From the NCBI GenBank assembly GCA_014382125.1, contig JACNKI010000130.1, forward strand, positions 1-40,000: a stretch of 40,000 bases of DNA, given 5' to 3'. This document shows, piece by piece, positions 1-26,575 of this stretch. The notes below the pieces were generated by a model. That model saw only the letters and a list, made by a program, of their open reading frames with translations. It did no database searches and was not told the origin of the DNA. The translations under genes and the position numbers were made by a program. The DNA is from Bacteroidota bacterium. GTDB taxonomy: Bacteria > Bacteroidota > Bacteroidia > Bacteroidales > FEN-979. The first letter of the stretch is position 1. Each line of letters opens with the position of its first letter.

Positions 1-2
1 TT

Positions 3-1583: not shown

Positions 1584-1587
1584 AGCG

Positions 1588-3366: not shown

Positions 3367-3370
3367 AGAA

Positions 3371-3727
3371 ATGAAAGTGAGAAACAGTTTTGTCGTTATC
3401 GACATGATCGAGATCAAGCCACACAAACCAACCGGCTTAACAGACTCGAAAGGAAAAGACCTTGCAAGTGAAAACCTGAAAAGGTTCAAAGAACATCCAT
3501 GGCAGGGAGAAGTCATCATGGCCCCGGAATATTATCTTAATGGTGGCCAGAAGTACGATTGTGACCTTCAGCCTGGGGATCGGGTTGTATTGCCCGGAAA
3601 GCCGCCTCAATCATCAGTCGTTGTCATGGACGGAAAAGTCTATGTTTACATAAGATACAGTGATATCATCTATTCATATACACCGAAAGAAATTAAAAAA
3701 ACCAACGCTAATCACAAGAAGAGATGA
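3371..3727 (+). CDS. GroES/Hsp10-like small beta-barrel protein (tentative)
   Basis: The 118-aa pattern QGEVIMAP...NGGQKYDCDLQPGDRVVLPG...VVVMDGKVYVYIRYSDIIY parallels the GroES pattern RGEVLAVG...ENGEVKPLDVKVGDIVIF...IDNEEVLIMSESDILA. There is an ATGA overlap with the next gene. Confidence 0.4.
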   Translation: MKVRNSFVVIDMIEIKPHKPTGLTDSKGKDLASENLKRFKEHPWQGEVIMAPEYYLNGGQKYDCDLQPGDRVVLPGKPPQSSVVVMDGKVYVYIRYSDIIYSYTPKEIKKTNANHKKR

Positions 3728-3933
3728 ATGATAAAATAAAAAAAAGGTTAGACGGATCAGCACAATCTATTTGTGAGGTTAATTTAATACTGTATGGTTG
3801 TGGAGATCCAGACCTTGATTTTTTTAAAGGTATATCATCGGAAGGGCGTAGAGAGATATGGGATCTTTGTCGTCCTAAATTAAAGCCAGAAATTGGAATA
3901 GTAATGATTACAGGAACAACCAGTAAAATATAA
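3724..3933 (+). CDS. hypothetical protein (69 aa)
   Basis: The ATG lies in an ATGA overlap with the upstream stop (3724-3727), which suggests translational coupling. Confidence 0.55.
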   Translation: MNDKIKKRLDGSAQSICEVNLILYGCGDPDLDFFKGISSEGRREIWDLCRPKLKPEIGIVMITGTTSKI

Positions 3934-3938
3934 TTGTC

Positions 3939-6203: not shown

Positions 6204-6205
6204 CA

Positions 6206-9200
6206 GTGATGCCAGAAGAACCAATTATTCCACCAAAAGACCGATCAAAAGGAATTGACTTCCTTGGTATGCTTTTGAATAAAAAAAATCTTGCTGATAT
6301 TGAAATGGAACATCAACAAACTGGATTTCCATTAAATATATATACCCGTGATGAACTCATTGACAGATATCCACAAATAAAAGACGATCAACAAAGACAG
6401 AATGATCTGCTTCAGTATCAGGATTCCTGGTTGAAGATGTATAATGCAAAAGGATTCAAACCTTTTGAGACTAAAAGCCTTACAATCCCTGATACAAAAT
6501 TTAACCGGGCGAGATATGGGCCTAAAGCAACTTATTATAATCCCAACACGGCTGAATTTGCTATCCCTGAACCTGAGTTTGGTTATTACTGGCCTAAGTC
6601 TTCAGAGAAGCATGGAGCAACGGGACTTCCTTTTTTAGCAACAGATATAGGAGATCATTTTGCAACATCAAAAGGATATTACATTGATCGTGAAGGAAAA
6701 AAACAGCCACTTGAATTAGCTGGAAATGCTGATGAGCATTTAAAGAGGGTGATGTCTGATGACGGAATGAAATATTATTGGCAGGAAGCTCAACCAGGTG
6801 AAATTATTCCAGGGGATCAGATAAGACAAATTATAGACAGGGATATGTCTTCTGAATCTATCTGGGGTACTATGGCCCGTGGTGCATGGAGTGGGTTTAT
6901 TCCCTTATTATATAAAGGTGTCGGAACAGCAGTATCAAATTTTTTTACTTGGTCTGATAAAGCGATGCGGCTTGATTTGGATTATTATAATCCAGATACA
7001 TGGTATAATAGATTTGGAGTAGATGCAATAAATGATGCCAACTGGATGTCTCCTCAAAATGAAGATGAAAGAAGAGGAGCTTTTGAATCATGGTCATCCG
7101 GATTGTTTAATTTAATGAATGGGACAACACAGATGTTTGGCATGATGGCTACTGGTGGTCTTATTGGGGGATTAGCGAGAGGTATTGGATTTGGGGCAAC
7201 TGCCGGTATGCGTATTGGAATGAACGCTTCTTTTGGTGTTGGGGGTGCTGAAGCTGGTTCTGGAATAAAAGAAGAGTTGGAACGCCTTGGGTATTCGAAG
7301 AATGATATCGAAATGATATTGCCATTGTTTATTAATGCTACAATTCTATCTGAAAGGGTTTTAAGTGCTAATATTGTTCAGCGTTTTGGTGTAAATGCTA
7401 TGATGGGATCTTTTGGGACAAAGGCGAGTCGTATGAAGGCAGGGCAATTATACACTAATGTCTTTGATGAAACTCTGAAAAATGCGAATACTTATTTCCC
7501 AAGATTCTCTGAAACAATGAAAGGAAGGGTAATCCAGAAGGCTTTTACTCGACTTTCACAAGCAAGAAAATATACAAGGGATCTTGCCGGAACGAATAAA
7601 TTCTTTCGGGTTGGGTTTGCTGGTATTGAAGAGGGATTTGAGGAAGGAATTGAAGGAAAATTCTATGATGTTATCAACATGTTCTATAATGGTTACAATA
7701 AGAATGTAGCTAACGAATTTATTGAAGAGTATGATAAATACATTTATACTGATCCTGTTGGATTGAATCGTCCAGGGCAGAATGTTGTGTCCGGTGATTA
7801 TTTTGTAAAGACAAGAAAAGATAATCCGAATGATTGGTCACTTGTCTCAAAAGATCAGTACCGTGAAGATACTGACAGGAGGGCATTCTCTGATAAGATA
7901 TTATCCGGTGAGGCATTGCTGACAGGCGGGAATACGGCAGAAGAGATGGCTATGGCCGCTCTTTCTACGTGGTTGGCTGTTGGTATGATAGGCGGAGGAA
8001 ACCAAAAGCATGTTCAGACAACAGTTATTGATTTTGCTTATCAATCTGTTAAAAATCCCGGAATGAAAGATCAGTTAAGGGAAACATACAGGGAGATGGA
8101 GAAAGATAATGAAGATGCTCTTGGTGTGTTTAAGACTGCTGATGGTGGTGTTACTGATAATGTGGATGAAAGCAAAAGGATGACAAGGGTTGACCTGATT
8201 ATCCAGGAGGTTGAGTTCTGGGAGAACATCATAAAGAAGTACGGCCTTGACTCCAAAGAGGCGAGGTTGGCGTATAATTCAAATATGAAACTCGGGGCGG
8301 AAGCAGCTCGGGCGGCAGGAAAAATAGAGAAGGTACAGGCTGCTATTGTAAGTGTTAGTAATAATGAGCCATTAGAAGAGGATGTTGATACAGGCATAAA
8401 AGCTGGTATGAAAGAAGATCAACTCAAAGATCTGGTAAAGACTCATCAAAAACAACTCGATGATATTGTAACGCCAAAGCCTGGTGAGTTCAATGGTAAA
8501 CCGGGAAAATATAGCATAAGATATACTGATCAGTGGAACACAATAGAACTCTTTGATCATTTCATTGATCGCCAGGCAGAAAATGCAGCCATTGCAAATA
8601 CATCAAAAGAGGCTATTATCCATGAGATACGTTCCGGAAAACGTGCAAGGGGTATTAAACTCGGGATAACGAAAGCATTTGGTATCGACAGTAAGATGCA
8701 TAAGATCGTTGAGGATGAATACCAGAAAGAAATCCAGCGAAAGAAAGCCGAATACAAAAAGAATTATCTCACTGACCGGAAGAAGATGAATGAGATGATG
8801 AGCAAATGGTTCATTGCCACAAATGAGCTTCCGGGTATTAACTCTATAATTCAGGATTACAAGAATAACGAAAACGCCATTCTGCACGACCTTGGCATTA
8901 AAATGGATGACATTGTTCAGCAATATAATGCCGAGATCAAAGAGGCTATACCCGATGAAGAGATTTCCGGTATCATGTCCGGTATTGAAACCCAACTCGA
9001 TGCCGTATCCGAAACCCTTGATAACATCGCACAACTACGTCAGAAGGGCGAGGCTGGTGCAGAAGAAACTTTTACCGAAGGACTTAATTCATTCCGTGAA
9101 GGATTTAGTTCTTTGCTTTATGATATAAATACCGTAATGGAACGGGTGGGAAAAACATCTGCGGAGGCCCTTACCGATGAATCCAACGCTGCCTACAACC

Positions 9201-12200
9201 TTTTCGCAAGGCGTTCTGCGGATGTCCTGTCCCGTTTACAGGGAGAGCTTAAAGCCGACTACGATAAAAGCAAAGCTGATCTGACGGGGATGAATATTGA
9301 CCTGGAAATGAATTATGATATGATTTCCGGTATTATAGCATCAGCAGAAAAAATGGACAGGTCAGCACCAATAGAAGATTTCAGCCAGTTTGCCGAAGGG
9401 GAAAGGTTAAAAAGATTGGTAAAAGCTTTTAACCAAATGTTTAATGAAGCGATCATCAGGACACCTGACGGAGTGTTTACAATAGGTGATCTTTATTCAA
9501 AACATAAAATATTCGCTGACGAAAAGAATGAACAGGATGTTGATAATCCGGATACTGTTTTGAAAGATATCAATGTCATGTTGCAATATCTTGAACGTCT
9601 TGAAAGATGGGTTGATGTCAATTATCCGTTATTTCAGCAGAAAGTGGAAAGAAATGATGACACCTATGAGCATAGTCCTATTGTCCATACTCCGAATCAA
9701 AGGTTAATGGAAGGTGATCGTGAGGCTATCCTTGAATCATTCAAGACCATAAAGAATACATTAAATAAGGTTCAGCGTGCTGCACAAAACGCCCAGGCAT
9801 CGATGGATAAGGAAAACTTCCGCCAGAGGATCCAACAGACGGATCTGAAGATCGGGATCCTGAATGATATTCATCAGTTTAATATTCCCCATGAGACTGA
9901 TAAAGATACACCGTCACTAAATGAACTTGATGGAATATTAAGTGCTATCTGGGCGAAATTAGAAGAGGCTGGCTATAAAGGTGACGACAGGAAATTTCTT
10001 GAAGGATTATGGAGGGATTTCGTTGATGGGAAAGTTGATGTGCAACAAGTCCAGAATCTAATGAATGAGATCGACGCACTTGTTGTTGAAGCGATTGATT
10101 CATTGTCCGGAAAGCTGGATTGGCTGGTAAAAGATATTGGCGTTATGATTGGTCTTCTTACCGAGCAAAACCTGAAAGAGAAAGGCGTTATAAATTATAC
10201 CTATTCTGTGCTGAATGACTTCAATGACAATGTTGCATTAAAACCGGCTACCGAATCTGTTCGTATCGAAGGTGGTTCAACCAGACACGGCTATGAAAGC
10301 GGAAGGATATCTTTTCAACAAGGCGGATCGCAGGGAAACTATTCAGATGAATACCTCTTTCACCTTGCCACCAACGTCCACCGTTGGAATGAATACGGAA
10401 GAAACAGGAAACCAAAATACTCTTCGATCTATATTGCTATCAAAGACTATATCGCAGAGAAAGAAGAGATGTTCAAAAACGGCAAGCGTACCTTTGCCCC
10501 TACCATCGACCAGGAGAACGTATTGCTTCATGCAATAGGATTCTATTTCAGTCCGGCAAACCCGCTTGTCACGGGCGGTACGTCAGTGATCGGAGAGAAC
10601 ATCCAGAAGATACTCAATTCTATCCTTGTAAGGGGATATGGTGGAACAGGCAAGTCAACGCAACTATTTACGGACATGATAGGCGTTTTGTCTAACCTGA
10701 TGAAGCGTCCGTTGAAAATCGGTGTTGTAGTGTCTACGTATGACCTTGCCAACGGGTATCTTAAGCAGAAAGAAATTGCAAACGATAAGCTTGAGAATGG
10801 TGAGTTTGATATCATATACACCGATGAGATGCTCGACAAAGACCTCAATAACCAATATGATTTATTATGGGTGGATGAGGTTTCCCTTCATGGCGAACAA
10901 CAGACTATTGACCTTGGCGAAAAGCTCAACACGATAAATACGGCCACGCAACTTCCCGTATTCTTTGTCGGTGATGATACCCAGGTGGTAAAGCAAGAGG
11001 CAAAAGGAGATTATGATGCGTTATGGTATAACTATTCCAGCGAGAGGACATCCCCGTTGAATATTGTTCACCGTACCGGGAAAAAAGTCTTTCATGCATT
11101 CCAGAACAAATTAAGAAGCCAGAAGTCTTCCACATCGAATGCCAAAATAGAGATTGATAACTATGGATATTCTGTCGATGAAGATGGCGGCAAGCATGGC
11201 GTTGAGTCATTCCTTACAATAAATGACGTTCTTGATTCATTCCTTTTGAGGATAACAAACGACAACCAGGAGATAGATCCCGGCATCGGGCCTGAAGAAG
11301 TTGTCCTGATTGTCCGTGACCAGGAAGCAGAGTTGATGTTCAGGGAGTATTTCATCTCAAAAGGTTATGAGATACCTCAACGCCTGATCAAACATCTCTA
11401 TCCGCAGGGAATAAAACAGGATCGGGAAAAGCTCGTATCCGGATTGTCGGCAGAGAATGTGTTCTTCGCATACAACTTTGACAGTGCCACATCCGATTTT
11501 GAATACCAGACCAACCTGTTTAAGATCCGCAATATCCTTACCGGAACCACACGCCAGGTAGAGTACGTGGCTATCGTCCATGATACCGTACAGGATAAGG
11601 TGGATCATATAGGAGAGTATAAATACAACAGGGAGAACGTACAGGGTTTCTTTAAAGACTTCCGTGAACGGCTGGATGCCGTATTAAGTAAATTCAAAGA
11701 GGATGGCGGAGTCGTTACCCCGCCAACACCACCGGGAACGGAAAAGCACGCTAACACTTATGAGGCTGCTGATCCCGAAGATGTCCGTTCCGAGACAAAG
11801 AAACAAAACACCAGGCTCAAGCGTCAGCAGATAAGCGAATCGTTTACGCATATCTCCGATCTGATCAACGAGAAGCTGAAGATCGGTGCTGATCCGGGAG
11901 CCAAGGCAAGGGGATTGTTCTATCACAACCTGATGAAGTATCATCTCAACCCGAGTGAACCTCTCTTTGATGAGCTTGTTAAAAATGCACAGGCCATGGT
12001 TGGTGATGATAAGATCAACGAACCGGAAGCCTTTGTCCGTTCTTTTCTCAATGCCATTGAATTAAGGGATGATGTACGTGAATTCCTTCATGATATAAAT
12101 ACGGTTATCTCCCCTGTCATTAAGACTGAAAAAGGAAACAACAAGGTACAGGCAAATCCGTTCGCTATCAAGTTCGTGGGATATACCAAAAAAGAGGGGG

Positions 12201-18200: not shown

Positions 18201-21200
18201 TCCACCGGGACAATAACCTGATGGGAGAAAGCTCACGGGTATATATCACCGAGGACTTGCGTGGCAACAACACTCTGTTTGAACAGCTTCAGAAGAGTGG
18301 TGTCATACGAAAGGATCTGAAGATCACTGACGGAGCATCTATCCTGAACCCGGTATTCCAGCAGATGATGCGGATACAATCGGGGAGTATTATATCTAAT
18401 CTCGGCAACGGGAGCTTTAAGACGATGAACTTTTACACACATCCCGCTACCGGGAAGAAAATATACTTCAAGTTCAACCAGTTTCCTACAAGTGCATCCG
18501 CATTTCAGAATGATCCGTTCTATCACGGCCTGACGAGGTTTATGCTCGGGGATCATCTTTATCACCGGCTGCTTGATAACCTTGGGCGTGGGAAGATGTC
18601 ATGGTATGATGCCATTAACGAGATCATCTATTACCTTGAGGATGAAGGAAAAGAACACCGCCAGGATATGATCGATTACACTGTCTTTGAGAGTGGATCG
18701 AAGTGGGCGATCACCAATATCAACCCGATACGTACAGACGCAAATGGTAACGCTATCTTTAATCCGAAAGACAATAATCCGGATAACACCATTGATGTCA
18801 GCAACCGTACATTGAGGGTACAGGTCATCACCAAACAGGATACCATTGATCCGTATACATCTACTCCCAGGCAGATACTTTATAATATCATAGCCGGTTC
18901 TCATAACATCGAGATCGCTGAAAGCATAAACAGCATCTTTAAAGACTACACGGACAAAGAGAACCGTACCATGGAAAAGGTCGTCAAGAAAGAAACCCAG
19001 ACGAAGTTCATCCGTGGTGCCGTCAAAGACCAGCTTTTCCGTTCGGAAGACCCGATGAAGATGATGGATATGGTGCGTGACCAAAACATCGATCCGTTCG
19101 TTTACAGGGATAAGTCCCACCAGGCTGTAATCAACCGGCTGAACAAGGCTCTCACACCGAGATTGCCTGGTGCTTTCCATGTGCAGGCGTTCTCTATGCC
19201 CAGGATCATCTGGATAGACGGACAGCCGATGCTGAAAGAAGATGTAGATGTCCTTCCTGAAAATTATACAACGGAAAACCTTAAACCCATACAGTACGAA
19301 TATAAAGGGACTCCGATAGAATACTACGAAGACCTTATTGAACATATAAACAGTGATCCTTCAAATGTCGTATACCGTCCCGCCCAGGTCATAGCACCGT
19401 TCAAAGACCGTGAGAAGTTCGGATTATCTGCCGAGACGACACTTCAGCAGGCCATGTCTTACCGCCTTATTGAAACAAATGAAGCGGGAGAAAGTTTCCC
19501 CGGTGAAAAAACAAGCCTTTATGAGCCGACATCGGAGAAGAGAACCGAAGAAGAGCTTGTGAAGCTGTTCATGGAAAATGACATTGATTTTTACAGCGAA
19601 GTAAGCGAAGAGGTAAACCGCAGATACGCTGCATTGAATACCAAGCAACTTACGCAGCTTTCGGGACAGGATTTGGAGATACAGGAAGTCAGCAACATCC
19701 TTACACTGGAAAAGACTTATGTCCCTAAAGTCACCGGTGAGGCGAAGAAGGTGATCATGGCAAAACTCTACGCCAGCTACTTCCGTAATTTCAATGATGC
19801 ACTGGACGTATTCTTTGTAAGGATTCCTACAACGATTGCTTCGATGGGTGCTATGGGGCGTATTGTAGCTTTCGATAACGGAGTGGAGAACACCCTGTAT
19901 ATATCTGCTGAAAAGAACATCCTTGACGGTTCCGATTGGGATGCAGACCAGTTGAACGTGATCTATCGCAGTATCACAGAAAAGGGATATAACACGGATG
20001 CCACATCCAACCGTTTGTTTGAGACCATCAAGAGGTTTTACGATAACCCGTTGAACTATGAATTTATCCTTTCGAGGATTACGGTGGATGAACTCGTTGA
20101 TCTGCGTGATGAATTGTATGAGAACAAAGAGATACGTGAATTCCTTCCGAACAACTTGGGATCGGCTGTACGCATGAGTGATGTAAACACCGATGGAAAG
20201 ATCATGGTGGGCCATTTTGTCAACCTGTCTAACTATTTTTACAAGATGGCTTCGTTACCGCAGAAGATACGCAATGAATTGTTCCCGAACACGATATTTA
20301 CAAATGATGAGAAATTCATGGAGTCAATCCGTGCTATTTCCATCCTTGTCAATGCGGCCACCGATAATGCAAAGCTCGGGGGACTGCTCGGGATGCTGAA
20401 CGTCAACACCCAGACATCACCGCTTATAGCAGGGATCCTGTTCGAAGGCTATAACGAGGCCGATAAGGAAAGGGGATACAAAAACCTTCTTGATAAGATG
20501 GTAAAGATCCTCAATTCGGATCAAGTCCTCAAGGCATCGAACAACTCCCAGAACCATATCACCCAACAGTTCAAAAAGAAGCTGTTCAGGCACCTTCCCA
20601 ATGTAACGAAGAAGAACACTGAAAGGATCGACCAGGAAGATGTATTATTGGCAAACGGACTCTGGGAAGAGGGGATGAAACCTATCGATATCCGTCACCG
20701 CCTTCGCCAGTATACGCATACGGGAGAACAACTTAGAAGGTTCGGTGATGTCGCAACGCTTATCAGTGGGATAAAAGGAAGCCTGTTCGATCTGAACCGT
20801 AAGATAGCCAATGTACAGTATGACATGGGCATCGAACTGACCAACTACCTTTCTCCTATCCTTGCGATGAGGGCAAACAATGAAGATGTAGAGTATGCGG
20901 ATATCAAAGAAGAGTTGCCTGTCCCGGACATGAAAGAGCAAGTGGAGTTCGCAGTCGGACAGCGTGTTGCCAACCTCTATACCGATGAAGACCTTTATGC
21001 CAATGAGGATGTGGAAGAAGATGATGAGATGCTGGCCGATGAGGATGAGGAAACAAAGACAGGGCCGAACCTTATCAACAGGGTGAAGAACCTTGAAGAG
21101 AATGAACGTAAGATCCGTGAGAAGTTCAATATAGCAGAAGTTGTGAAAGAGTTCCCGCACATGATTGCGGAGCTTGAGTCGTTGGTTCGTGTCAAAGAGA

Positions 21201-24200
21201 TGATCAGCTATATCCCCATGGAAGAGATGTACAACCAGACTTTTGATACCGCACTGAAGATGATCCGCAAGGACAGGATATTCGATAAGTCTGCGTACAA
21301 GGCTTTCGAGAGGGGATTCAGTGATTATATTCTGGGGCAGTTCATATCGGATAATTACACCAACGTAGAGTACAACAATAATTTCCTGACAGAGAACGGG
21401 TATACGCAAAATAACTTCGACTTCTCCGAGATTGAAGACCGCACCGTATTTGTTCTCTCCATGCCGTATTATTTGAGAGAACTCAAAGATGTCTATAATG
21501 ACAATAAATTCATCTCTTCATTGAGTGTCGTAAGCCGTAAGTCCGATAATCACCTTATCATAGAACTTACCCATAGCAGACAGGTTCCACCGGAAGTCCT
21601 TTCGGAGATGGAGAGTGACTTTGAGAAACTGCCGGAAGAGATAAAAAGTGTGTTCAGGCTGTATTCCGCATTGGTGTATGGATTTAACAATCCCAACGGG
21701 AGCTTCAGTGCCATCCTCGACTCGGAGATCGAGATCGAGTTCTCGGCATGGATGGAAGATGCTGTCATCGACACCGACCTTGCAGCCAGAGAGATACTGG
21801 TAAAGACACACAAGCTTATTCCTTACGATTTCAGTTACAGGGTTAATGAGTCTGTCATAGGACAATACACCGGTGCTGATCTGGTGAGGCTGAACATGTC
21901 CTATAAAGAGGATCCGATGATCATAGAACAGGATGAATTTGGTGATTACACCAAACCTGTCGTGAGTCCGTACTATATGTGGATGAATTCTTATACCGGC
22001 AAGAATACGCTTACTGATAATATATCTTCGATAAACATGCCTTTTGAAGAAATGCTTCGACTGATGGCAGGAGAAAATGCAGTCATCCCTGTCGGGAGAT
22101 ATTTCATCGAGTTCAAGAATTGGGCAAAGAGAAAATTCAACAAAGACACCACTATCCAGGTTATTCCTACCGGAAGAACCGTCAACGCAAACCTGATAAA
22201 AATCGATGATACAAGGATGGTTTCGTACTCTCCTATGATGCCAAGCGATGTTGTTGAATCACGCATCAATGAACCTAATTACACCAGGCTGACACAGGCG
22301 GTAAAGAGCAGTGATGGATTAGTAACGATAATAGATCACGTACAGAAAGTCTTCCCGAACATTAAATATTCGTTCGTTGATAAGAGTACGGCACTGCACC
22401 CTTCGATGAAATCATATATCCATGGCGGTATCGTTCATTTGAACCTGTCAAAGATAAACCCCCATGATCCGTTCCATGAGGCAACGCATATCTTTTTAGA
22501 GATAGCAAAGAATCTTAATCCGGAGATGTATTCCGGTCTTGTGGATGAGGCATTGGAGATGATAAAATCTGATGATCCTGTCGTACAGGTGGTTAAAAAG
22601 CTGTATTCGGAAAAGAGCAATGAAGACCTTGTTGATGAGGTCATAGCAACCGTTGTCGGATTCAAGAGTGCCGAGAAAGTGATGGCGTTCCTGTCAGGCA
22701 AACCGATGCCGGAACTGGAACAGACATCAAAGACCATCTTTGAACGCATCAGCGATAAAGTGTCGGAGTTCTGGGATATGATACAGAGTTTCGTATTTGA
22801 TCTGTTTAATGTCGATAACTACGCCCTTCGTGTCCCGGCAAACGAATTCTCTGACCTGTCTATCTCTTCCCTTGCAGACATCATCATTAAAAGCTCAACC
22901 AAAGGTGGTATGTTGAGTACCATCACCAGCGACCAGCTTAAAAAGCTGATGCATTCCCGTACGGTGGAGTCACGGTTTGAGAATGGCGGGATCAAAAACG
23001 TCAAAGACTTCTTCGATGCCACTGTCTATGACATGGAGAAAGACGAGCCTCTGCTTGCCAAGATCAACCTTGAGAACGTAAAGAACATCATTCGCAGATA
23101 TGGGAATCTCCCCTCTTTCTATGTGGGATATGAGGTAAACTTCAGTGGGGATCTGAACTCTGTTGAGAACGAGGCCAGGATAAAGGAGTTGATGAAGGTG
23201 CATGACAGGATGGATAACGAGATCGTTCCTGACAGCCGTGACTGGCTTAATGACGGTGCGAGCATCGAAAAGAACATCCGTTACACGCAACGGGAGACAG
23301 GCGAAGAATTCGGTTATTACACTATGGATGTGATGAATAAGCTTAAACGTGCTATCCTTTACACCAAACACACCAAGTTTGCCCGTTACAGCGACCTTGC
23401 CAATATAGAAGGCATGAAGCACCTTTATAACCCGATGTTCAAAGGGTTTGATCCGTTGATCGCTATCGAATACAATAAAGACGGCCAGATAAATCTATCC
23501 ATCTATGATATCACATCGAACACGCTTGAGGGGACAGGGAGCCGTTCTATAAGGGGAAATATGCTAAGACGGTTTTACAGTGATTATCTTGTAAGAAAAA
23601 TAAAACTCTTCAATGATATCACCCTGACCAACAACAATGCCGATACCAGGAGGATGATGGTACAGCTTTTGGCGAATCACCTTCTGGCCGACAGCAGTGT
23701 GAGTATATCTGACATGGCCGTTATCGGGCTGAGGAGAAGCAAGGTCGTGTATAAGAACATCGACCAGTATGAAATGAACAACAACATAAAGGCCATGGGC
23801 AAATACGATGACTTCATGGAGATCCTCTCGAAAGAGATGCAGGAGTTGTTCCAGGAGAAGAACATCCGTTATGCCGATATTGACCTTTGGAGAGAGCTAT
23901 CAGGCTTTTACCAGGCACGGGATATGAAAGACCATGGACTTGAAAAGGTGATCATGGAGAACGGGGAGGAGCCTGTCACAACGGAAGAGAAGAAAGTGAT
24001 CCTTCGCCACCGTCTGTTGTATCTTGAACGGAACCTGAAAAAGAAAAGCGACCTGAATACTGAATATGCCATAGATATCATCCGTGAGATGCGGTTATTG
24101 TATGAGCTGCTGTCATGGTATCACGATATGCCGTTGAACCAGGCACAGATAAACCCTCATACACGTATCAACCAGACGATGTTGTTTATCCATGACGGGA

Positions 24201-26575
24201 ATTCTATTGGCGGAGAGAATGTACAACGTATCAGGAAACTGGTACTGGACGCATCGGGGGATGTAAACAGGGAATTCAATAAGGTTCTCAAGCCGTTGAA
24301 AGAAAAGGGCGGGGGATTTGAATATTTCTATAACACCTTTGGCAATCCTATCAAGGGGAAGGTATCCAATATAGCAGAAGAGATATTTGACAAACTGTTT
24401 GTAAGAGAAACCGATGATAAAGGAAATGACTACCTGACGGGATTCATCTATTGGACTACTGATAAAACAAAAGATGAGGTCAATGCTGACAAGGCCAGGG
24501 AGCTGAACCTTCCGCCTGAAGTGCTGAAGTACGGAGAGATCATCGTGGGGATTATCAACGAAGAACTTGCTAAACTGAAACTCCACCAGAAGGTAATGTC
24601 TCAGCGTGGACTTAAAACCAAAGAGGGTGAAGATTATACCATCGTGAATGCAAGAGAGGAGATACTTGCATCTGGCGGCTATAAGCCGGGAATGGTTCCG
24701 TTGATGACAAAGACCTACTCTGCCAATATAAGCACGGGAGATGTGTTTAAAGGCATGAAGAAACGGCTTTCACGTACTGCTGACGTATTTACGCTGTATG
24801 AGGGACTTGATCCTGAAAATATCAAGGCAAACCAGGATGAGGGTCAAGACCTCAACAGCCTTGGAAATATTTTCTGGTACCAGTTTGGTATCGATGTATC
24901 GAGTGATATCACCGAACTGGGATCCATCACCAGGCTGTCACAATATCTCGGATTAGATGTTGTGGATAGCGGTGTGGATTCAGAGAATGAGCCGTATAAG
25001 TTTGAATTGAAAGACAAATCAAGGAATGATGACCTGTCGAAAGACCTTGAACTGATATTGAATTATTTCGTGATGTCTTCCGTTCGCAACCGTACTTATG
25101 AAGAGAAAGTGATGCCGGTTGTAAATGCTGCTAAGATACTGGCTATCGAGAGGCAAAACAACAGGGACATCGACGAGAAGAACTTTATGACGTTTGCGGA
25201 TCTGTTCATCAAGCAGGCGATAAAGGGAGAGAGAACAAAGCTCGATATGAATATTGCAGGGGTAAACCTCGATAAATCATTGGCTATGGGGATTGAACTG
25301 GCTAACTTCGTTGTATTGCCTTTCAATGTGAATATCGGTGCTATCTCGATGATCGTAAATGCAGTCTATTCCTATACGGAAGGTGTTGTCGGATCATTGA
25401 TGAAGCCTTTATGGAATGAAGAAAGCGTTATGTTTACATCAAAAAATTTATTAGAAGCAACGAGATTGTTTTTTACAGATAAGCATAAGATTACTCAGAT
25501 GATGCACCAATATCAGCTTATCAATCCGAACGATTATGAGCTTACCAACATGCAGTATCATCAGAAAACGAAGAAGTCCATCCTTTCCAGGCATTATATG
25601 AACTGGATGAACTGGGCATCTGACACCTATGCCAGAAGTCTTATAATGACAGCACAGATGTTGCATGACGGAACGTACCATGCGCATAAGTACGATGAAG
25701 AGAGCGGAACCGTTATTTATGATCCGAAAGAGGATAAGCGTCTGGGATGGAACGGGGTGAAGTATTCCGAAGAGGGCCAGGTATTATATGACTTTATGAA
25801 AAAGAGGCTGGTATCTGACGGACTGCAAAAAGCCGATCAGGAACTTACCAGAGGATATCTTGATGAAGAAGCACGAAAGTTTAAGTTCCTGGCCGATAAA
25901 TATGTCATTGGTGCTTACGATAACAAAACACGCAGTTTGTTGAATAATTACCTTATTGGGAAAATGTTCTTTCAGCTTCGCAACTGGACAGTAACCAGGA
26001 TAACAAATGCTATCGAAGAAAAGAAATTTTTAGCCGAAGGCGGAAGATACATTGTAGTCAGAAATAAAGAGGGTGAATTGGTTCCACAGTGGGAGAGGAT
26101 GATGGTGGAAGGATATGTGAATACCATTATAAGGAATATTGTCCTTACCGTTAAAAGCCGTAGCATTAAAAACTGGAAGAACCTGAATTATATGGAGAAA
26201 AGAAATCTCACTAAGGCGGGGGCGAATGTAGCGATGTTTACAGTGATGATGCTGATGTATAATCTGCTTGTGATAGAAGATGAAGATGATCCGGATGAAC
26301 TTGGTGTCATACCTGATTGGAGGATATTAAGGAATATTAAGTATGCAGCGCAGTCGATATTTATATTTCCGATTTTACTTGAGTTTATTTCAAGACCATT
26401 TGCAATGGTAGATATTATTGCAAGTTTATGGATAGGTATATTTGAGAATATTTTTAATGTAAAACTTGAGAACATCGGAAGCACATATCCGGGCAAATCA
26501 CAGATATATACTGTCGGTGAACCGTTCGGATTGAAGAAAAAAGATTTGGATGTAAAAAATATTTGGGAAGAATAG
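6206..26575 (+). CDS. giant polyvalent virion protein containing a crAss-type DPBB RNA polymerase module plus helicase-like and two zincin-like modules (6,789 aa)
   Basis: There is no stop codon for 20,370 nt. The track start at 6206 is GTG, and the ATG at 6209 is the more likely start. The internal motifs are listed as separate features below. Confidence 0.95.
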   Translation: MMPEEPIIPPKDRSKGIDFLGMLLNKKNLADIEMEHQQTGFPLNIYTRDELIDRYPQIKDDQQRQNDLLQYQDSWLKMYNAKGFKPFETKSLTIPDTKFNRARYGPKATYYNPNTAEFAIPEPEFGYYWPKSSEKHGATGLPFLATDIGDHFATSKGYYIDREGKKQPLELAGNADEHLKRVMSDDGMKYYWQEAQPGEIIPGDQIRQIIDRDMSSESIWGTMARGAWSGFIPLLYKGVGTAVSNFFTWSDKAMRLDLDYYNPDTWYNRFGVDAINDANWMSPQNEDERRGAFESWSSGLFNLMNGTTQMFGMMATGGLIGGLARGIGFGATAGMRIGMNASFGVGGAEAGSGIKEELERLGYSKNDIEMILPLFINATILSERVLSANIVQRFGVNAMMGSFGTKASRMKAGQLYTNVFDETLKNANTYFPRFSETMKGRVIQKAFTRLSQARKYTRDLAGTNKFFRVGFAGIEEGFEEGIEGKFYDVINMFYNGYNKNVANEFIEEYDKYIYTDPVGLNRPGQNVVSGDYFVKTRKDNPNDWSLVSKDQYREDTDRRAFSDKILSGEALLTGGNTAEEMAMAALSTWLAVGMIGGGNQKHVQTTVIDFAYQSVKNPGMKDQLRETYREMEKDNEDALGVFKTADGGVTDNVDESKRMTRVDLIIQEVEFWENIIKKYGLDSKEARLAYNSNMKLGAEAARAAGKIEKVQAAIVSVSNNEPLEEDVDTGIKAGMKEDQLKDLVKTHQKQLDDIVTPKPGEFNGKPGKYSIRYTDQWNTIELFDHFIDRQAENAAIANTSKEAIIHEIRSGKRARGIKLGITKAFGIDSKMHKIVEDEYQKEIQRKKAEYKKNYLTDRKKMNEMMSKWFIATNELPGINSIIQDYKNNENAILHDLGIKMDDIVQQYNAEIKEAIPDEEISGIMSGIETQLDAVSETLDNIAQLRQKGEAGAEETFTEGLNSFREGFSSLLYDINTVMERVGKTSAEALTDESNAAYNLFARRSADVLSRLQGELKADYDKSKADLTGMNIDLEMNYDMISGIIASAEKMDRSAPIEDFSQFAEGERLKRLVKAFNQMFNEAIIRTPDGVFTIGDLYSKHKIFADEKNEQDVDNPDTVLKDINVMLQYLERLERWVDVNYPLFQQKVERNDDTYEHSPIVHTPNQRLMEGDREAILESFKTIKNTLNKVQRAAQNAQASMDKENFRQRIQQTDLKIGILNDIHQFNIPHETDKDTPSLNELDGILSAIWAKLEEAGYKGDDRKFLEGLWRDFVDGKVDVQQVQNLMNEIDALVVEAIDSLSGKLDWLVKDIGVMIGLLTEQNLKEKGVINYTYSVLNDFNDNVALKPATESVRIEGGSTRHGYESGRISFQQGGSQGNYSDEYLFHLATNVHRWNEYGRNRKPKYSSIYIAIKDYIAEKEEMFKNGKRTFAPTIDQENVLLHAIGFYFSPANPLVTGGTSVIGENIQKILNSILVRGYGGTGKSTQLFTDMIGVLSNLMKRPLKIGVVVSTYDLANGYLKQKEIANDKLENGEFDIIYTDEMLDKDLNNQYDLLWVDEVSLHGEQQTIDLGEKLNTINTATQLPVFFVGDDTQVVKQEAKGDYDALWYNYSSERTSPLNIVHRTGKKVFHAFQNKLRSQKSSTSNAKIEIDNYGYSVDEDGGKHGVESFLTINDVLDSFLLRITNDNQEIDPGIGPEEVVLIVRDQEAELMFREYFISKGYEIPQRLIKHLYPQGIKQDREKLVSGLSAENVFFAYNFDSATSDFEYQTNLFKIRNILTGTTRQVEYVAIVHDTVQDKVDHIGEYKYNRENVQGFFKDFRERLDAVLSKFKEDGGVVTPPTPPGTEKHANTYEAADPEDVRSETKKQNTRLKRQQISESFTHISDLINEKLKIGADPGAKARGLFYHNLMKYHLNPSEPLFDELVKNAQAMVGDDKINEPEAFVRSFLNAIELRDDVREFLHDINTVISPVIKTEKGNNKVQANPFAIKFVGYTKKEGEIVPIVDILHLNHSKAKESQALDNKPMLQAQLGAYMAMVNDMGMLVNNVHLHTFRFETKKETGEGIPVQYRFSPLKTLTSKEKLEALKSASQVSFISDLGITEPQTPTEEEYFEVERVADDSLKGMKFSDPRVSIEPDKYFVDDSNIPSVITKITKKTEGKEVTTYVHLMQNRVEQKMTLPDFLAHGFNFMDIEYFEYMFIESALKFSDAENRRLISFTPHFPALSADIADVYNISFKEFANDISFWNQDENKLLKARSLVTERFINSKQTRVVKRYLPSVNLMDIAKDGTIKSKSRKFDHVMVNAISEDSIKEFFDKPFLEELSKIFSYELTIKDIRTLGLNVLSNDSQVEYDFKDASFTAVGLFDRSKQRKMAEEYLNLAEGQTTNGLSDEAFLDKIFENAFLSEINRDKAKSTETSQRNWREFLVEMNKHRLRTMRDAKMRGDLDTELVEASSGRMVRDGKRTTKTLTELLNMAKPHGFTVDTTAVEISDIGIERKRFAVSFNRGSAEPTVVYFDGKKIHGGENDQEWNDYKQQVKDEFDNLKNIIDDKNLSLRQKKIKLENSTGFQLIMANKSFFTEKDEEGGLTTKDTFSPYMYVNKKNYLNIIYRGDEDTRISHYLDQIKFIFDEFVVKAVQGETGGDMYYNPYIDSKTVDFSKIEAEGIDFSNVSLWFSPSDFRGDEEAVRTIKHVGTPLGDGTEFIPFSSEMSYTPLSFSLIDVEQAKGILIDILGSENVKKHLYTKNLDIKNNILRNQYNKKVFGLFDKGMIRFSTFDGKVEHLTPRHEAMHFITGVLLSPRERASLLKDTKKRMVSVKYTKEEGDTIYEYNREQDITDRDAYEYMAVIFEDGSYKTTFTPRGKTLLQKWLHFIRAFIDKYMRHRTSLLGVLYAADRGVFAKDNARNHEVVNDQMSKVVVNKYSNSSARNISISRFGNETNINRILENEVIPKIFNNFLPTAKTMNPRMAGRSTWEAIIKAHNYYLNAWKYYTKKNEDGEIVNPVSFTMLQGKEVIEVEDVPMADVTVEQYLGVQRYAEQSNSRLAYTFLKSYEVFNLGRYNHGKSMLYIFVQRALSHLNLESILANPNQEVGNFANIIFKDPREEGADINPFDTMNPMLTAMYSAIPLYNHSTMKFKDSNNQPYGHVNPSRLHALLTYSMFRLKSEQTKFRTDAWMNVLEEMLKEMPDSVDKNTIFSFLVEFGNRIVDPRTQRIRFTHDYNVIGHVDHRNDKNKEGTEKLIGLGYMQIMNDYYKKGRIHKFFTGEGSVRQLGYKLTEEEYRDKIRTYESLISGLKYYYLTLFNRMSEKAVAPYNLRDFKLQPVTNHERLMKKKDTKSAVINRISSYNDSGLNNKIINALTEGHADHTYTVTKDGVYDIEGTLMVKMPPRKTKKDSGNVNFSSMKELLSFIGIDTEIDLLENIYDPKKVKEDLRVQPERTYRYLEDHVYAFMLSLKVNSLIYPVIQQNEEKFFNKEIKAKDLIKLFDEKTDGMYSLLNNIYKDYYSKELRPEDLSNLDEKSRGTLMNAPTPLDFWRAIESISERALTFNYQLNNPMSINPEGNPSYGFQNGSFLSDRLPMPTKEKQKSSVLLRKLVLDDGAFTEGNPFYGGMTPDGRTLYNNPILSGKIEFDHLNFISGFEYVDSGSLFWKLSKKNKFQAVLESLKKALLGDTVYQYVPSIIDPLADKSAMPFIHWGFKGLRGMQQIANVEKGSFNNKPSLKSVEVNYAAILPTLYELKTYYVNVMEQKKAKWNAITPEKSVQKTSTKGRQILKELKRGGEYIIVGGRIHQGNEITQRGNPLLDLTYDSFDQKASNYAEYLKDHVTDVKRAFGNHFESFGQDLKESGYKMSKADLYIFDKYQIQGKDLGSWIAERDKIYAEFKVKTDEIQDRINKAKKAKNNALVDRLNLDKEKIKNQRGEAVSKPNEVIKQFRKEVAENNYLDDKGNMNPFLETAFWSHYILGESLGTLIRGSSYEYEDVIDYIKRGAGPIAPGNTFDIDFHRDNNLMGESSRVYITEDLRGNNTLFEQLQKSGVIRKDLKITDGASILNPVFQQMMRIQSGSIISNLGNGSFKTMNFYTHPATGKKIYFKFNQFPTSASAFQNDPFYHGLTRFMLGDHLYHRLLDNLGRGKMSWYDAINEIIYYLEDEGKEHRQDMIDYTVFESGSKWAITNINPIRTDANGNAIFNPKDNNPDNTIDVSNRTLRVQVITKQDTIDPYTSTPRQILYNIIAGSHNIEIAESINSIFKDYTDKENRTMEKVVKKETQTKFIRGAVKDQLFRSEDPMKMMDMVRDQNIDPFVYRDKSHQAVINRLNKALTPRLPGAFHVQAFSMPRIIWIDGQPMLKEDVDVLPENYTTENLKPIQYEYKGTPIEYYEDLIEHINSDPSNVVYRPAQVIAPFKDREKFGLSAETTLQQAMSYRLIETNEAGESFPGEKTSLYEPTSEKRTEEELVKLFMENDIDFYSEVSEEVNRRYAALNTKQLTQLSGQDLEIQEVSNILTLEKTYVPKVTGEAKKVIMAKLYASYFRNFNDALDVFFVRIPTTIASMGAMGRIVAFDNGVENTLYISAEKNILDGSDWDADQLNVIYRSITEKGYNTDATSNRLFETIKRFYDNPLNYEFILSRITVDELVDLRDELYENKEIREFLPNNLGSAVRMSDVNTDGKIMVGHFVNLSNYFYKMASLPQKIRNELFPNTIFTNDEKFMESIRAISILVNAATDNAKLGGLLGMLNVNTQTSPLIAGILFEGYNEADKERGYKNLLDKMVKILNSDQVLKASNNSQNHITQQFKKKLFRHLPNVTKKNTERIDQEDVLLANGLWEEGMKPIDIRHRLRQYTHTGEQLRRFGDVATLISGIKGSLFDLNRKIANVQYDMGIELTNYLSPILAMRANNEDVEYADIKEELPVPDMKEQVEFAVGQRVANLYTDEDLYANEDVEEDDEMLADEDEETKTGPNLINRVKNLEENERKIREKFNIAEVVKEFPHMIAELESLVRVKEMISYIPMEEMYNQTFDTALKMIRKDRIFDKSAYKAFERGFSDYILGQFISDNYTNVEYNNNFLTENGYTQNNFDFSEIEDRTVFVLSMPYYLRELKDVYNDNKFISSLSVVSRKSDNHLIIELTHSRQVPPEVLSEMESDFEKLPEEIKSVFRLYSALVYGFNNPNGSFSAILDSEIEIEFSAWMEDAVIDTDLAAREILVKTHKLIPYDFSYRVNESVIGQYTGADLVRLNMSYKEDPMIIEQDEFGDYTKPVVSPYYMWMNSYTGKNTLTDNISSINMPFEEMLRLMAGENAVIPVGRYFIEFKNWAKRKFNKDTTIQVIPTGRTVNANLIKIDDTRMVSYSPMMPSDVVESRINEPNYTRLTQAVKSSDGLVTIIDHVQKVFPNIKYSFVDKSTALHPSMKSYIHGGIVHLNLSKINPHDPFHEATHIFLEIAKNLNPEMYSGLVDEALEMIKSDDPVVQVVKKLYSEKSNEDLVDEVIATVVGFKSAEKVMAFLSGKPMPELEQTSKTIFERISDKVSEFWDMIQSFVFDLFNVDNYALRVPANEFSDLSISSLADIIIKSSTKGGMLSTITSDQLKKLMHSRTVESRFENGGIKNVKDFFDATVYDMEKDEPLLAKINLENVKNIIRRYGNLPSFYVGYEVNFSGDLNSVENEARIKELMKVHDRMDNEIVPDSRDWLNDGASIEKNIRYTQRETGEEFGYYTMDVMNKLKRAILYTKHTKFARYSDLANIEGMKHLYNPMFKGFDPLIAIEYNKDGQINLSIYDITSNTLEGTGSRSIRGNMLRRFYSDYLVRKIKLFNDITLTNNNADTRRMMVQLLANHLLADSSVSISDMAVIGLRRSKVVYKNIDQYEMNNNIKAMGKYDDFMEILSKEMQELFQEKNIRYADIDLWRELSGFYQARDMKDHGLEKVIMENGEEPVTTEEKKVILRHRLLYLERNLKKKSDLNTEYAIDIIREMRLLYELLSWYHDMPLNQAQINPHTRINQTMLFIHDGNSIGGENVQRIRKLVLDASGDVNREFNKVLKPLKEKGGGFEYFYNTFGNPIKGKVSNIAEEIFDKLFVRETDDKGNDYLTGFIYWTTDKTKDEVNADKARELNLPPEVLKYGEIIVGIINEELAKLKLHQKVMSQRGLKTKEGEDYTIVNAREEILASGGYKPGMVPLMTKTYSANISTGDVFKGMKKRLSRTADVFTLYEGLDPENIKANQDEGQDLNSLGNIFWYQFGIDVSSDITELGSITRLSQYLGLDVVDSGVDSENEPYKFELKDKSRNDDLSKDLELILNYFVMSSVRNRTYEEKVMPVVNAAKILAIERQNNRDIDEKNFMTFADLFIKQAIKGERTKLDMNIAGVNLDKSLAMGIELANFVVLPFNVNIGAISMIVNAVYSYTEGVVGSLMKPLWNEESVMFTSKNLLEATRLFFTDKHKITQMMHQYQLINPNDYELTNMQYHQKTKKSILSRHYMNWMNWASDTYARSLIMTAQMLHDGTYHAHKYDEESGTVIYDPKEDKRLGWNGVKYSEEGQVLYDFMKKRLVSDGLQKADQELTRGYLDEEARKFKFLADKYVIGAYDNKTRSLLNNYLIGKMFFQLRNWTVTRITNAIEEKKFLAEGGRYIVVRNKEGELVPQWERMMVEGYVNTIIRNIVLTVKSRSIKNWKNLNYMEKRNLTKAGANVAMFTVMMLMYNLLVIEDEDDPDELGVIPDWRILRNIKYAAQSIFIFPILLEFISRPFAMVDIIASLWIGIFENIFNVKLENIGSTYPGKSQIYTVGEPFGLKKKDLDVKNIWEE
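7091..7268 (+). other. Gly-rich hydrophobic (membrane-insertion-like) segment of giant protein
   Basis: The segment starting at residue 296 reads WSSGLFNLMNGTTQMFGMMATGGLIGGLARGIGFGATAGMRIGMNASFGVGGAEAGSGI. It has GxxxG-type packing and almost no charged residues. Confidence 0.5.
10496..11585 (+). other. SF1 (RecD/TraA/AAA_30-like) helicase/ATPase module of giant protein
   Basis: The motifs appear in canonical order. Q-motif-like APTIDQENVLLHAI. Walker A GYGGTGKST (10634-10660, residues 1477-1485). Walker B DLLWVDEVS (10859-10885). Motif III FFVGDDTQ (10961-10984). Then NIVHRTGKK, and a motif VI-like TGTTRQVEYVAIV. Confidence 0.65.
11912..12315 (+). other. possible degenerate PD-(D/E)xK (RecB/Cas4-like) nuclease motif set following the helicase module
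   Basis: GLFYHNLMKY resembles the GxxxH motif, EIVPIVDILHL supplies the motif II Asp, and QAQLGAYMAMV matches QxxxY. The expected (D/E)xK position reads LNHSK, so the match is imperfect. Confidence 0.25.
14489..14755 (+). other. zincin-like metallopeptidase module 1 (HEAMH) of giant protein
   Basis: The sequence reads GLFDKGMIRFSTFDGKVEHLTPRHEAMHFITGVL. The HExxH motif lies at 14558-14572 (residues 2785-2789). A downstream acidic helix, AYEYMAVIFEDG, is a candidate third ligand. Confidence 0.5.
19808..19969 (+). other. DPBB RNA polymerase catalytic loop (DxDxD) of giant protein
   Basis: VFFVRIPTTIASMGAMGRIVAFDNGVENTLYISAEKNILDGSDWDADQLNVIYR parallels bacterial beta-prime VLLNRAPTLHRLGIQAF...NADFDGDQMAVH. 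The Asp triad lies at 19934-19948 (residues 4577, 4579, 4581). Confidence 0.8.
22415..22663 (+). other. zincin-like metallopeptidase module 2 (HEATH) of giant protein
   Basis: The sequence reads YIHGGIVHLNLSKINPHDPFHEATHIFLEIAKNLNPEMY. The HExxH motif lies at 22475-22489 (residues 5424-5428). The downstream LVDEVIATVVGF is analogous to the corresponding helix in module 1. Confidence 0.55.
25280..26455 (+). other. C-terminal cluster of transmembrane-like helices of giant protein
   Basis: Three hydrophobic stretches are present: LAMGIELANFVVLPFNVNIGAISMIVNAVYSY, AGANVAMFTVMMLMYNLLVI (followed by EDEDDPDE), and AAQSIFIFPILLEFISRPFAMVDIIASLWIGIF. Confidence 0.5.

Follow-up and report, generated by a model that had tools for sequence, protein, structure and literature searches.

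The giant gene and its locus

The stretch of DNA analyzed here (the window) comprises 40,000 nucleotides (nt) of Bacteroidota bacterium assembly GCA_014382125.1, positions 1 to 40,000 of the forward strand of contig JACNKI010000130.1, and its main feature is one giant open reading frame (ORF) that takes up 51% of it. The ORF listing confirmed the original prediction of a single uninterrupted 20.4-kb ORF that begins 2 nt after the preceding stop. From the GTG at 6206 the ORF has 6,789 codons with a single stop, at its end; an in-frame stop upstream ends at 6199, and the longest ORF in the other frames over the same interval is 263 amino acids (aa). The ATG at 6209, directly after this GTG, is the likely start of the gene, because the gene callers of other assemblies give a product of 6,788 aa, which would have a mass of 779.4 kDa and an isoelectric point of 5.5. 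The preceding gene ends at 6203, so that 2 nt separate it from the GTG and 5 nt from the ATG. The series of motifs that had been listed along the protein is also present, in the order given. The main features of the window are collected in Table 1.

The giant ORF contains zero Cys codons in 6,789, compared to approximately 80 predicted from base composition. In the other two frames of the same DNA, TGY triplets occur 183 and 304 times.

Table 1. Features of the window, with residue numbers of the giant protein where they apply.
Feature	Coordinates	Strand	Residues and basis
Muzzle (tail tip) gene, 3′ part, cut by the window start	1..1583	+	Pfam PF25731 crAss_MUZ, E 2.3e-12
Genes between muzzle and giant	1588..6203	+	include a 445-aa Gly-rich protein (1588-2925) and a 754-aa protein (3939-6203)
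GroES/Cpn10-like co-chaperonin gene, inside the tail/cargo operon	3371..3727	+	Pfam E 3e-5; PHROG 3188
Giant ORF	6206..26575	+	6,788-aa gene called in independent assemblies; no Cys codon
Conserved N-terminal region	6653..8605	+	aa 150-800; family conservation profile
SF1B (RecD/Pif1/Dda-like) helicase-type P-loop NTPase	10463..11605	+	aa 1420-1800
Conserved block, probable site of the predicted "nuclease-like" motifs	12143..12355	+	aa 1980-2050
Junction 1	14387..14575	+	about aa 2728-2790; in split relatives a new protein begins at this point, its N-terminus reading M-x-C
First HExxH domain, adjacent to junction 1	14423..15055	+	aa 2740-2950; putative gluzincin-type metallopeptidase
Two-barrel RNA polymerase core	17903..20905	+	aa 3900-4900; family profile match to gp66, AlphaFold2 and Foldseek
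Acidic tract DEDLYANEDVEEDDEMLADEDEE	20984..21052	+	aa 4927-4949; poorly conserved in the family
Junction 2	22283..22351	+	about aa 5360-5382; the split polymerase-bearing protein ends here, with Cys 0-3 residues from its C-terminus
Second HExxH domain	22343..22885	+	aa 5380-5560; same position as the zincin-like domain of gp65 orthologs
Alpha/beta domain	23273..23875	+	aa 5690-5890; model confidence (pLDDT) 85-95
Conserved C-terminal region	24923..26455	+	aa 6240-6750; homologous to the C-termini of gp65, crAss001-like gp49 and IAS gp057

Recovery of the gene from independent assemblies

Two small neighboring genes were used as exact-match probes, and the locus was recovered from the ENA assemblies ERZ24794645/47/48/54/56/66/71 and from the Logan assemblies SRR27456520, ERR13319672, SRR19040528 and ERR13319543/637. 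At least a dozen independent metagenome assemblies carry the giant gene. The 6,788-aa gene was called in the ENA assemblies, and in the shorter Logan contigs the gene runs past the contig end. The recovered contigs were 99.5-99.9% identical to the window, and no indels or stops were found in the ORF in the 13 contigs that were aligned to the window ungapped. The retrieved flanks cover the ORF except for window positions 13728-16633, where the full 6,788 aa comes from the gene calls.

Across the contigs there were 80 variant sites in the ORF, of which 61 were synonymous and 19 non-synonymous. Under random mutation only 21% would be expected to be synonymous. The gene is therefore undamaged, and purifying selection acts on it over its whole length. 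An assembly chimera, or a row of separate genes whose stops were lost to sequencing error, is therefore a negligible explanation for the long ORF. Nothing was found in its favor, the interval not covered by the retrieved flanks being the only gap in the case against it. The gene calls in independent assemblies, the 13 contigs without gaps, the pattern of variants, and the 22 relatives described below, which share the end-to-end architecture at roughly 27-38% identity, all contradict it. The misassembly that the original prediction had allowed for was thus not seen in any of these data. Ten of the 19 non-synonymous variants were clustered at aa 1162-1211 (window 9693-9840) and were common to the same four assemblies, which looks like one recombined patch in an otherwise near-identical population.

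The RNA polymerase core

The predicted DPBB RNA polymerase was supported by profile homology, by the alignment of catalytic motifs and by fold comparison. The family profile was compared to the proteins of phage phi14:2, with the database size set conservatively at 100,000, and residues 1314-1790 of gp66, the virion RNA polymerase (RNAP) of this phage, were matched with an E value of 1.2e-4. The giant sequence VRIP...GSDWDADQLNV was aligned with YRIP...GSDFDIDKMYV of gp66, which places DWDAD 4577-4581 opposite 1361-DFDID-1365. The beta'-like loop of the giant protein thus spans R4539-I-P...D4577-W-D-A-D4581 (aa 4539-4581, with DWDAD at nt 19934-19948) and is followed by an NAATDNAK motif at aa 4716-4723. 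The DxDxD motif is invariant in 75 of 75 relatives, and R4539 and P4541 are invariant or nearly so. Each Asp of the gp66 motif is essential (Drobysheva et al. 2021). D4577, D4579 and D4581 are predicted to form the Mg site of the giant's polymerase.

The AlphaFold2 model of aa 3901-4900, for which 24 relatives were used, had a predicted local distance difference test score (pLDDT) of 75.5 and a predicted template modeling score (pTM) of 0.77. In a Foldseek search of the PDB, the first-ranked structure was the phi14:2 virion RNAP (6vr4_A; E 2.3e-13, probability 1.0, TMq 0.48, 1,090 columns), with 12% identity in the structural alignment. Ranks 2-6 were QDE-1 (E about 4e-3), followed by the beta' subunits of cellular and viral RNAPs. 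With a smaller profile of the RNAP loop, made from 13 sequences, gp66 was missed in the PDB, whereas the larger family profile and the fold search found it. We consider it firm, by profile and model, that the giant protein contains a gp66-type two-barrel RNA polymerase.

Relatives of the giant protein

An exhaustive HMMER search with aa 3701-4900 returned 79 relatives, counted as cluster representatives, and the family alignment was built as a query-anchored phmmer alignment. Thirty-one of the 79 were at least 5,900 aa long, the largest reaching 7,388 aa. Twenty-two relatives are collinear with the window protein from within its first ~840 residues to within its last ~90; one of them (P0003, 6,585 aa) aligns at giant positions 5-6756. 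The giant relatives are only ~27-38% identical to each other in the core, and conservation spans the full length, with peaks at aa 150-800, 1400-1800, 2750-3200, 3900-4900, 5350-5500 and 5700-6750. Because these 22 relatives are collinear nearly end to end, the single-gene architecture is an old, conserved state of a whole clade. The original prediction had left open whether the orthologous region of crAss-like genomes would be one gene or several, and both were found: one gene in these 31 relatives, and a split block in others. Ten representatives were looked up and all were metagenomic; those of giant length were unnamed and the others carried at most the label "hypothetical protein".

Searches with single sequences were less productive. 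The giant protein gave only a sub-threshold AAA_30 match in Pfam and no match in PHROGs or in a phmmer search of the PDB; blastn and tblastn of ORF segments against GenBank phages gave no match, and neither did a pattern search of IMG/VR. Word-indexed protein searches with the RNAP segment and with the family alignment also returned nothing, which we attribute to the limit of the index, as HMMER found the 79 relatives. The C-terminal 589 aa alone matched three phage records, the best being MT835470, a gut contig of 117 kb that is unverified and carries the block in split form.

The helicase and the HExxH domains

A Gly-rich, uncharged hydrophobic segment lies at aa 300-355 (nt 7103-7270), with 15 Gly in a window of 45 aa, and is a candidate membrane-active element. 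A similar Gly-rich segment is found at aa 99 of the gp47 homolog of a crAss001-like phage. This phage, PhiCrAssBcn3, stood in for crAss001 in the sequence comparisons, its genes 20 and 22 having the sizes of gp47 and gp49.

The helicase that had been predicted downstream of this segment was supported. The giant protein has a Walker A motif (GYGGTGKS, aa 1477-1484, nt 10634-10657), a Walker B motif (VDEVS, aa 1555-1560) and a motif III (GDDTQ, aa 1589-1593, of the GDxxQ type). All three are invariant, being present in 22-23 of 23 relatives. The AAA_30 model gave 26.8 bits with the window protein (E 4.9e-6; cutoff 27 bits) and matched 10 of 13 family members, with a best E value of 1.8e-14. The helicase profile matched 9kwf_B in the PDB (E 4.9e-7), and then RecD, Pif1 and TraI. 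For the second RecA-like domain (2A), only a motif-VI-like "R..LT..SR..Y" was aligned to 9kwf_B, at a non-significant score. Overall, the sequence comparisons support the assignment of aa 1420-1800 as an SF1B-type helicase domain.

The two peptidases that had been predicted were supported as motifs, but not as a fold. The first HExxH motif is HEAMH at aa 2785-2789 (nt 14558-14572), in which H2785, E2786 and H2789 are invariant in 23 of 23 relatives, and it is followed 52 residues downstream by an invariant Glu, E2841. The second is HEATH at aa 5424-5428 (nt 22475-22489), in which H5424, E5425 and H5428 are invariant in 36-37 of 37 relatives, with an invariant E5478 50 residues downstream. The two domains are paralogous (hhalign 94.6%, E 7e-8). 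The first is homologous to the C-terminus of crAss001-like gp47 (E 1.3e-4 to 6e-4) and to the HExxH region of cr50_1 gp059 (E 1.6e-7), while the second aligned weakly with HEIMH 245 of phi14:2 gp65; a zincin-like protease domain has been described in the gp65 orthologs (Drobysheva et al. 2021). The first domain had no Pfam or PDB match. The AlphaFold2 model of aa 5341-5900 (pLDDT 72) shows a helix, three strands, the HExxH helix (81-97) and more helices around the second, and gave no significant Foldseek match in the PDB. From their motifs and position, both domains are putative metallopeptidases.

The C-terminal region contains hydrophobic helices at aa 6366-6387, 6672-6690 and 6717-6750 by hydropathy scan. 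The family hidden Markov model (HMM) of this region matched residues 1183-1370 of gp65 (E 3.9e-10), IAS gp057 (E 2.9e-7), the crAss001-like gp49 homolog (E 4.5e-5) and an MT835470 ORF (E 3.7e-39).

Split forms of the block and their terminal cysteines

When the split points of relatives were projected on the giant protein, they fell at aa ~2728-2790, ~4250 and ~5360-5380, the first and third lying 45-60 residues upstream of the two HExxH motifs. Split blocks were examined in phi14:2, the crAss001-like phage, IAS virus, Fpv1, crAss002, cr50_1, MT835470 and metagenomic split forms. In every one of them a Cys lies 0-8 residues before the C-terminal end of the upstream protein, and in nearly every one the downstream protein starts with M-x-C or M-x-x-x-C. 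These junction cysteines are often the sole cysteines in split proteins of 1,300-4,400 aa. The terminal windows hold 0.5-0.7% of the residues and 30-38% of all cysteines, compared to none there in the giants, and the giants of the family average 0.023% Cys.

In phi14:2, gp67 ends in ...NTIC, gp66 runs from MAC... to ...QECK, and gp65 starts with MSC..., the three proteins having no cysteines besides these. In the crAss001-like phage, the only Cys of gp47, which is encoded on the opposite strand, is residue 2339 of 2341, those of gp50 are at 5, 1530 and 2600 of 2608, and the only one of gp49 is at 5. The pattern tracks the domain order of the giant even with the genes on opposite strands. In IAS virus, gp058 ends in ...LRC, gp055 has C5 and C834 of 837 residues, gp056 has C2157 of 2159, and gp057 has C5. 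Fpv1 gp33 has its only Cys at residue 4400 of 4401 and gp34 starts with MAC, while cr50_1 gp059 ends in ...KECE and gp060 starts with MQC. The junctions of MT835470 (66-21767) read ...NCKLNI / MAC... ...RINC / MSC...KENC / MAC.... In the metagenomic split forms the N-terminal pieces have only a C-terminal Cys and the C-terminal pieces have only Cys 3. In crAss002, gp32 has only Cys 2019 of 2020 residues, and the first Cys of gp33 is at 35, with no N-terminal Cys as annotated.

The simplest reading of this pattern suggests that split lineages rebuild the continuous chain of the giant by head-to-tail disulfides. What is selected would then be an unbroken covalent chain through the RNAP cargo block, made either of peptide bonds, as in the Cys-free giants of 5.9-7.4 thousand aa, or of disulfides, a proposal to which we give slightly less than even odds. 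If it is true, the cargo proteins would exit the capsid as one thread, and the disulfide-linked versions would come apart in the reducing cytoplasm. The virions of crAss001 are known to contain structural disulfides, and no report of the terminal-cysteine pattern was found in the searchable literature. The pattern makes the delivery, order and stoichiometry of these huge cargo proteins testable in cultured phages.

The split subunits also share a short motif at the N-terminus, approximately M-x-C-x-[YFI]-x-x-x-G-x-x-[FY]-x-[ST]...L, whichever module comes next. It was seen in the family members P0013, P0026, P0033, P0037, P0047, P0048, P0053, P0057 and P0060 and in phi14:2 gp66 and gp65, and resembles a small element for docking at the individual junctions. 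The RNAP block of MT835470 is interrupted by an ORF at 10768-11829 in which LLLGDGTI and YMDDGC are motifs of the LAGLIDADG type; this agrees with reports of introns in the RNAP genes of crAss-like phages.

Comparison with known virion RNA polymerases

The closest described system is gp67-gp66-gp65 of phi14:2 (PDB 6VR4), with which the giant shares the module order, the DxDxD motif, the polymerase fold, the gp65-like C-terminus and the near-absence of Cys. In both, an HExxH domain opens the gp65-like module. The differences are that the giant is one chain of 6,788 aa where phi14:2 has three of 1,797, 2,180 and 1,421 aa, that BLAST finds no match between them, that the N-terminal module is ~900 aa longer than gp67 and carries an SF1B helicase that was undetected in gp67, and that a second HExxH domain, which gp66 does not have, precedes the RNAP.

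Large fused RNAP-block proteins occupy the same operon position in cr50_1 (gp059, 4,774 aa, a RefSeq protein annotated "DNA helicase"), Fpv1 (gp33, 4,401 aa) and crAss002 (gp33, 4,245 aa). However, these fuse two modules rather than three, and each keeps a Cys-bearing junction with the remaining subunit. Gp059 of cr50_1 (7617-21941) shares the domain types of the giant, as HExxH (E 1.6e-7), RNAP (E 2.4e-10) and helicase (GYAGTGKS, E 7e-4 to 1e-3) were all matched, but in a permuted order, with HExxH at aa 1665, the RNAP motif DFDID at aa 3154 and the helicase at aa 4275, whereas the helicase comes first in the giant. By these matches, the set of helicase, HExxH and RNAP domains appears to be common to the giant and to recognized Crassvirales, in an order that can change.

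In crAss001, the cargo proteins gp45 and gp46 come after the muzzle protein, as do gp47, gp49 and gp50, which are associated with the RNAP; all of these are in virions. The summed mass of gp47, gp49 and gp50 is 694 kDa, compared to 779 kDa for the giant, but the block consists of three genes on two strands, each product presumably being packaged in several copies. In PhiCrAssBcn3, the C-terminus of gene 20 matches the first HExxH domain of the giant and gene 22 matches its C-terminal module.

Two more distant systems are similar in strategy. The virion RNAP of N4 and DEV (Schitoviridae, about 3,400-3,500 aa) is also giant and Cys-free, has membrane-associated regions, is encoded in an ejection operon, and is packaged in the capsid and ejected; however, it has an unrelated T7-like single-subunit fold, is half the size of the giant, and has neither the helicase nor the HExxH pair. 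In P23-45 a two-barrel virion RNAP is also fused into a giant structural or ejected protein (5,002 aa), but the fusion partner is a siphovirus tape measure protein, and homology to the giant is at the superfamily level only (E ~0.7). A separate, non-virion RNAP of P23-45, gp96, was among the weak Foldseek matches of the giant's RNAP model.

A probable fused virion transcription block

We interpret the giant ORF as the virion transcription block, in fused form, of an uncultured and deep-branching phage of the crAss-like group, with a probability of about 0.85. Gp66 and the products of the two adjacent genes are virion proteins in phi14:2 (Drobysheva et al. 2021). Of the three, gp66 and gp65 were matched directly by the giant, and the N-terminal module was tentatively linked to the third position through the C-terminus of crAss001-like gp47, through cr50_1 gp059 and by position. 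The N-terminal module (aa 1 to ~2728, the gp67/gp47 position) would carry the Gly-rich hydrophobic segment and the SF1B helicase-type ATPase. The middle module (~2728-5370) would open with an HExxH domain and hold the gp66-type two-barrel DNA-dependent RNA polymerase. The C-terminal module (~5370-6789, gp65/gp49 type) would open with the paralogous HExxH domain and end in the conserved hydrophobic region.

The original prediction was right that several functions, encoded by separate genes elsewhere, are fused here in one translation product, but it overstated the novelty that this implies. According to Yutin et al. 2018, as cited by Drobysheva et al., some crAss-like phages have the equivalents of gp67, gp66 and gp65 joined in a single huge polyprotein, and according to a 2023 review the crAss-like group is marked by RNAP genes that reach about 6,000 aa. 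The giant is a new, very divergent and somewhat larger example of an already reported fusion. It shows that the crAss-type virion transcription block in completely fused form is a stable architecture across a wide uncultured clade and no rare accident. The comparison of fused and split forms yields natural domain boundaries for the whole block, and it indicates that the RNAP, the helicase and the paralogous pair of HExxH domains stay together as a set whose order can change. With its 779 kDa, the product ranks among the largest of the phage proteins that have to travel through a tail.

We infer that the giant protein is packaged in the virion, ejected, and transcribes early genes, from its homologs, from its place in a late tail and cargo operon and from its zero Cys content. 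Virion packaging of the homologs was demonstrated by mass spectrometry in phi14:2 (Drobysheva et al. 2021) and, for gp47, gp49 and gp50, in crAss001 (Bayfield et al. 2023). Suppression of Cys has been reported for the ejected virion RNAPs of N4 and DEV and for their ejection operon, and was explained by passage through the periplasm. By analogy, the zero Cys content of the giant fits passage through the envelope and supports its reading as ejected cargo. It is very unlikely that the giant is instead an intracellular transcription and replication protein that is not packaged in virions. A helicase and an RNAP could both act inside the cell, but the giant lies on the same strand as the tail and cargo genes, 2-5 nt after them and downstream of the muzzle gene, its homologs are virion proteins, and total avoidance of Cys is typical of ejected proteins.

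The original prediction also referred to injected polyvalent proteins (Iyer et al. 2017). If the giant were an effector of this type, the helicase and the peptidases would mainly counter host defenses and transcription would be one of several activities. The multi-enzyme, injected architecture would suit such an effector. In addition, a weak BFVD Foldseek match (E 0.017) was to a "Large polyvalent protein associated domain" protein, and one family member matched Pfam LPD14 (E 0.019). These stray matches were all that was found of this comparison, as the signature domains (MuF, ART, SNF2, methylases and MPTase-PolyVal) were absent from the window protein and from 11 relatives, and over its entire length the chain follows the order of the crAss RNAP block and not that of polyvalent proteins. 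We therefore regard an anti-defense effector as improbable, although less so than an intracellular role.

Several observations weigh against the interpretation as a crAss-like transcription block, or limit its parts. The lineage is remote, since single-sequence searches of Pfam, PHROGs, the PDB and GenBank phages missed the giant, barring the sub-threshold AAA_30 match. Membership of Crassvirales proper is tentative: the muzzle gene (PF25731) is the Crassvirales signature gene found in the window, and the capsid, portal and terminase genes lie beyond both the window and the contigs that were recovered; moreover, Fpv1 is not placed in Crassvirales although its block is the same. The roles in packaging, ejection and transcription are read from homologs at the 12% identity of the structural alignment. 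The family HMM gave no detectable match of phi14:2 gp67 to the N-terminal module, so that its equivalence to gp67 is partly shown, by position and by the crAss001-like gp47 and cr50_1 matches. Finally, a zincin fold for the HExxH domains found no support in Pfam, PDB profiles or Foldseek searches of the PDB.

By analogy with phi14:2, crAss001 and N4-type phages, the giant protein would be made late and packed into the capsid, and the chain would be threaded through the tail into the host, at least partly unfolded, ahead of or with the DNA. After entry it would refold and then transcribe early genes, and its hydrophobic ends may help to build or cross an envelope channel. Covalent continuity during delivery is suggested because the split lineages keep the HExxH domains and have the junction cysteines. 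Cleavage after delivery is suggested because HExxH domains adjoin both junctions, and we lean, at about even odds, towards the chain being cut near the two junctions by these adjacent domains.

Alternatively, the 779-kDa chain may never be cleaved, and would then be ejected as a single thread and act as a tethered RNAP-helicase machine. Covalent continuity would be selected here too, and the HExxH domains would act on host targets such as peptidoglycan or defense proteins. Split lineages retain HExxH domains away from their junctions (cr50_1 gp059 aa 1665, crAss001-like gp47 aa 2157 and gp65 aa 245) and have Cys at every junction, as if restoring a covalent link, and peptidoglycan digestion is one possible role of the gp65 protease (Drobysheva et al. 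2021). However, both HExxH domains of the giant lie 45-60 residues past the split positions, where a cis-acting maturation protease would be expected, and junction disulfides, if formed, would be reduced in the cytoplasm, so that separate subunits may be the working state. An uncleaved chain is thus a tentative possibility, somewhat less favored than cleavage of the delivered transcription block.

Remaining regions and genomic neighborhood

Among the remaining regions of the giant protein, the weak nuclease-like motif set of the original prediction was not borne out. A nuclease at aa 1890-2120 was rejected, as this region had no Pfam or PDB profile match and no conserved (D/E)xK; the block at aa 1980-2050 has the consensus G.P....VG...PIVDIYD...K.G.YAA. 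The alpha/beta domain at aa 5690-5890 has a conserved pattern, G.DPII.IE...S.YD, and in BFVD its Foldseek matches to PD-(D/E)XK and exonuclease proteins were marginal (E 0.05-0.5 only).

The predicted same-strand operon of tail and ejection-like genes was recognized upstream of the giant as the muzzle gene and Cys-free candidate cargo genes. The muzzle product is called as about 1,000 aa, extending upstream, in other assemblies. The 445-aa and 754-aa proteins both contain no Cys and, by their position, are candidate small cargo or ejection proteins; genes of crAss001 (gp45/gp46), crAss002 (gp30/31) and Fpv1 (gp31/32) match the 1588..6203 genes in position. In some ENA assemblies the gene at 1588..2925 appeared to carry a 100-nt insertion near window 2204-2258, flanked by a 55-nt duplication, which was rejected as a run of N from scaffolding. 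Window 1-2743, which holds the muzzle end and the start of the next gene, was 96.5% identical and gapped in two assemblies, compared to 99.6-99.9% over the remaining locus. All contigs end near this interval, as at a strain-variable hot spot that breaks assemblies.

Downstream of the giant there are three further same-strand genes, after which the opposite strand carries a block of small, divergently oriented genes. The gene directly downstream (26634..27740) has 10 Cys in 368 aa. The core layout of crAss002, Fpv1 and cr50_1 is as in the window, but in those phages no gene stands between the RNAP block and the divergent genes. Phage phi14:2 encodes GroEL, and the window has a GroES-like gene within the operon (Table 1).

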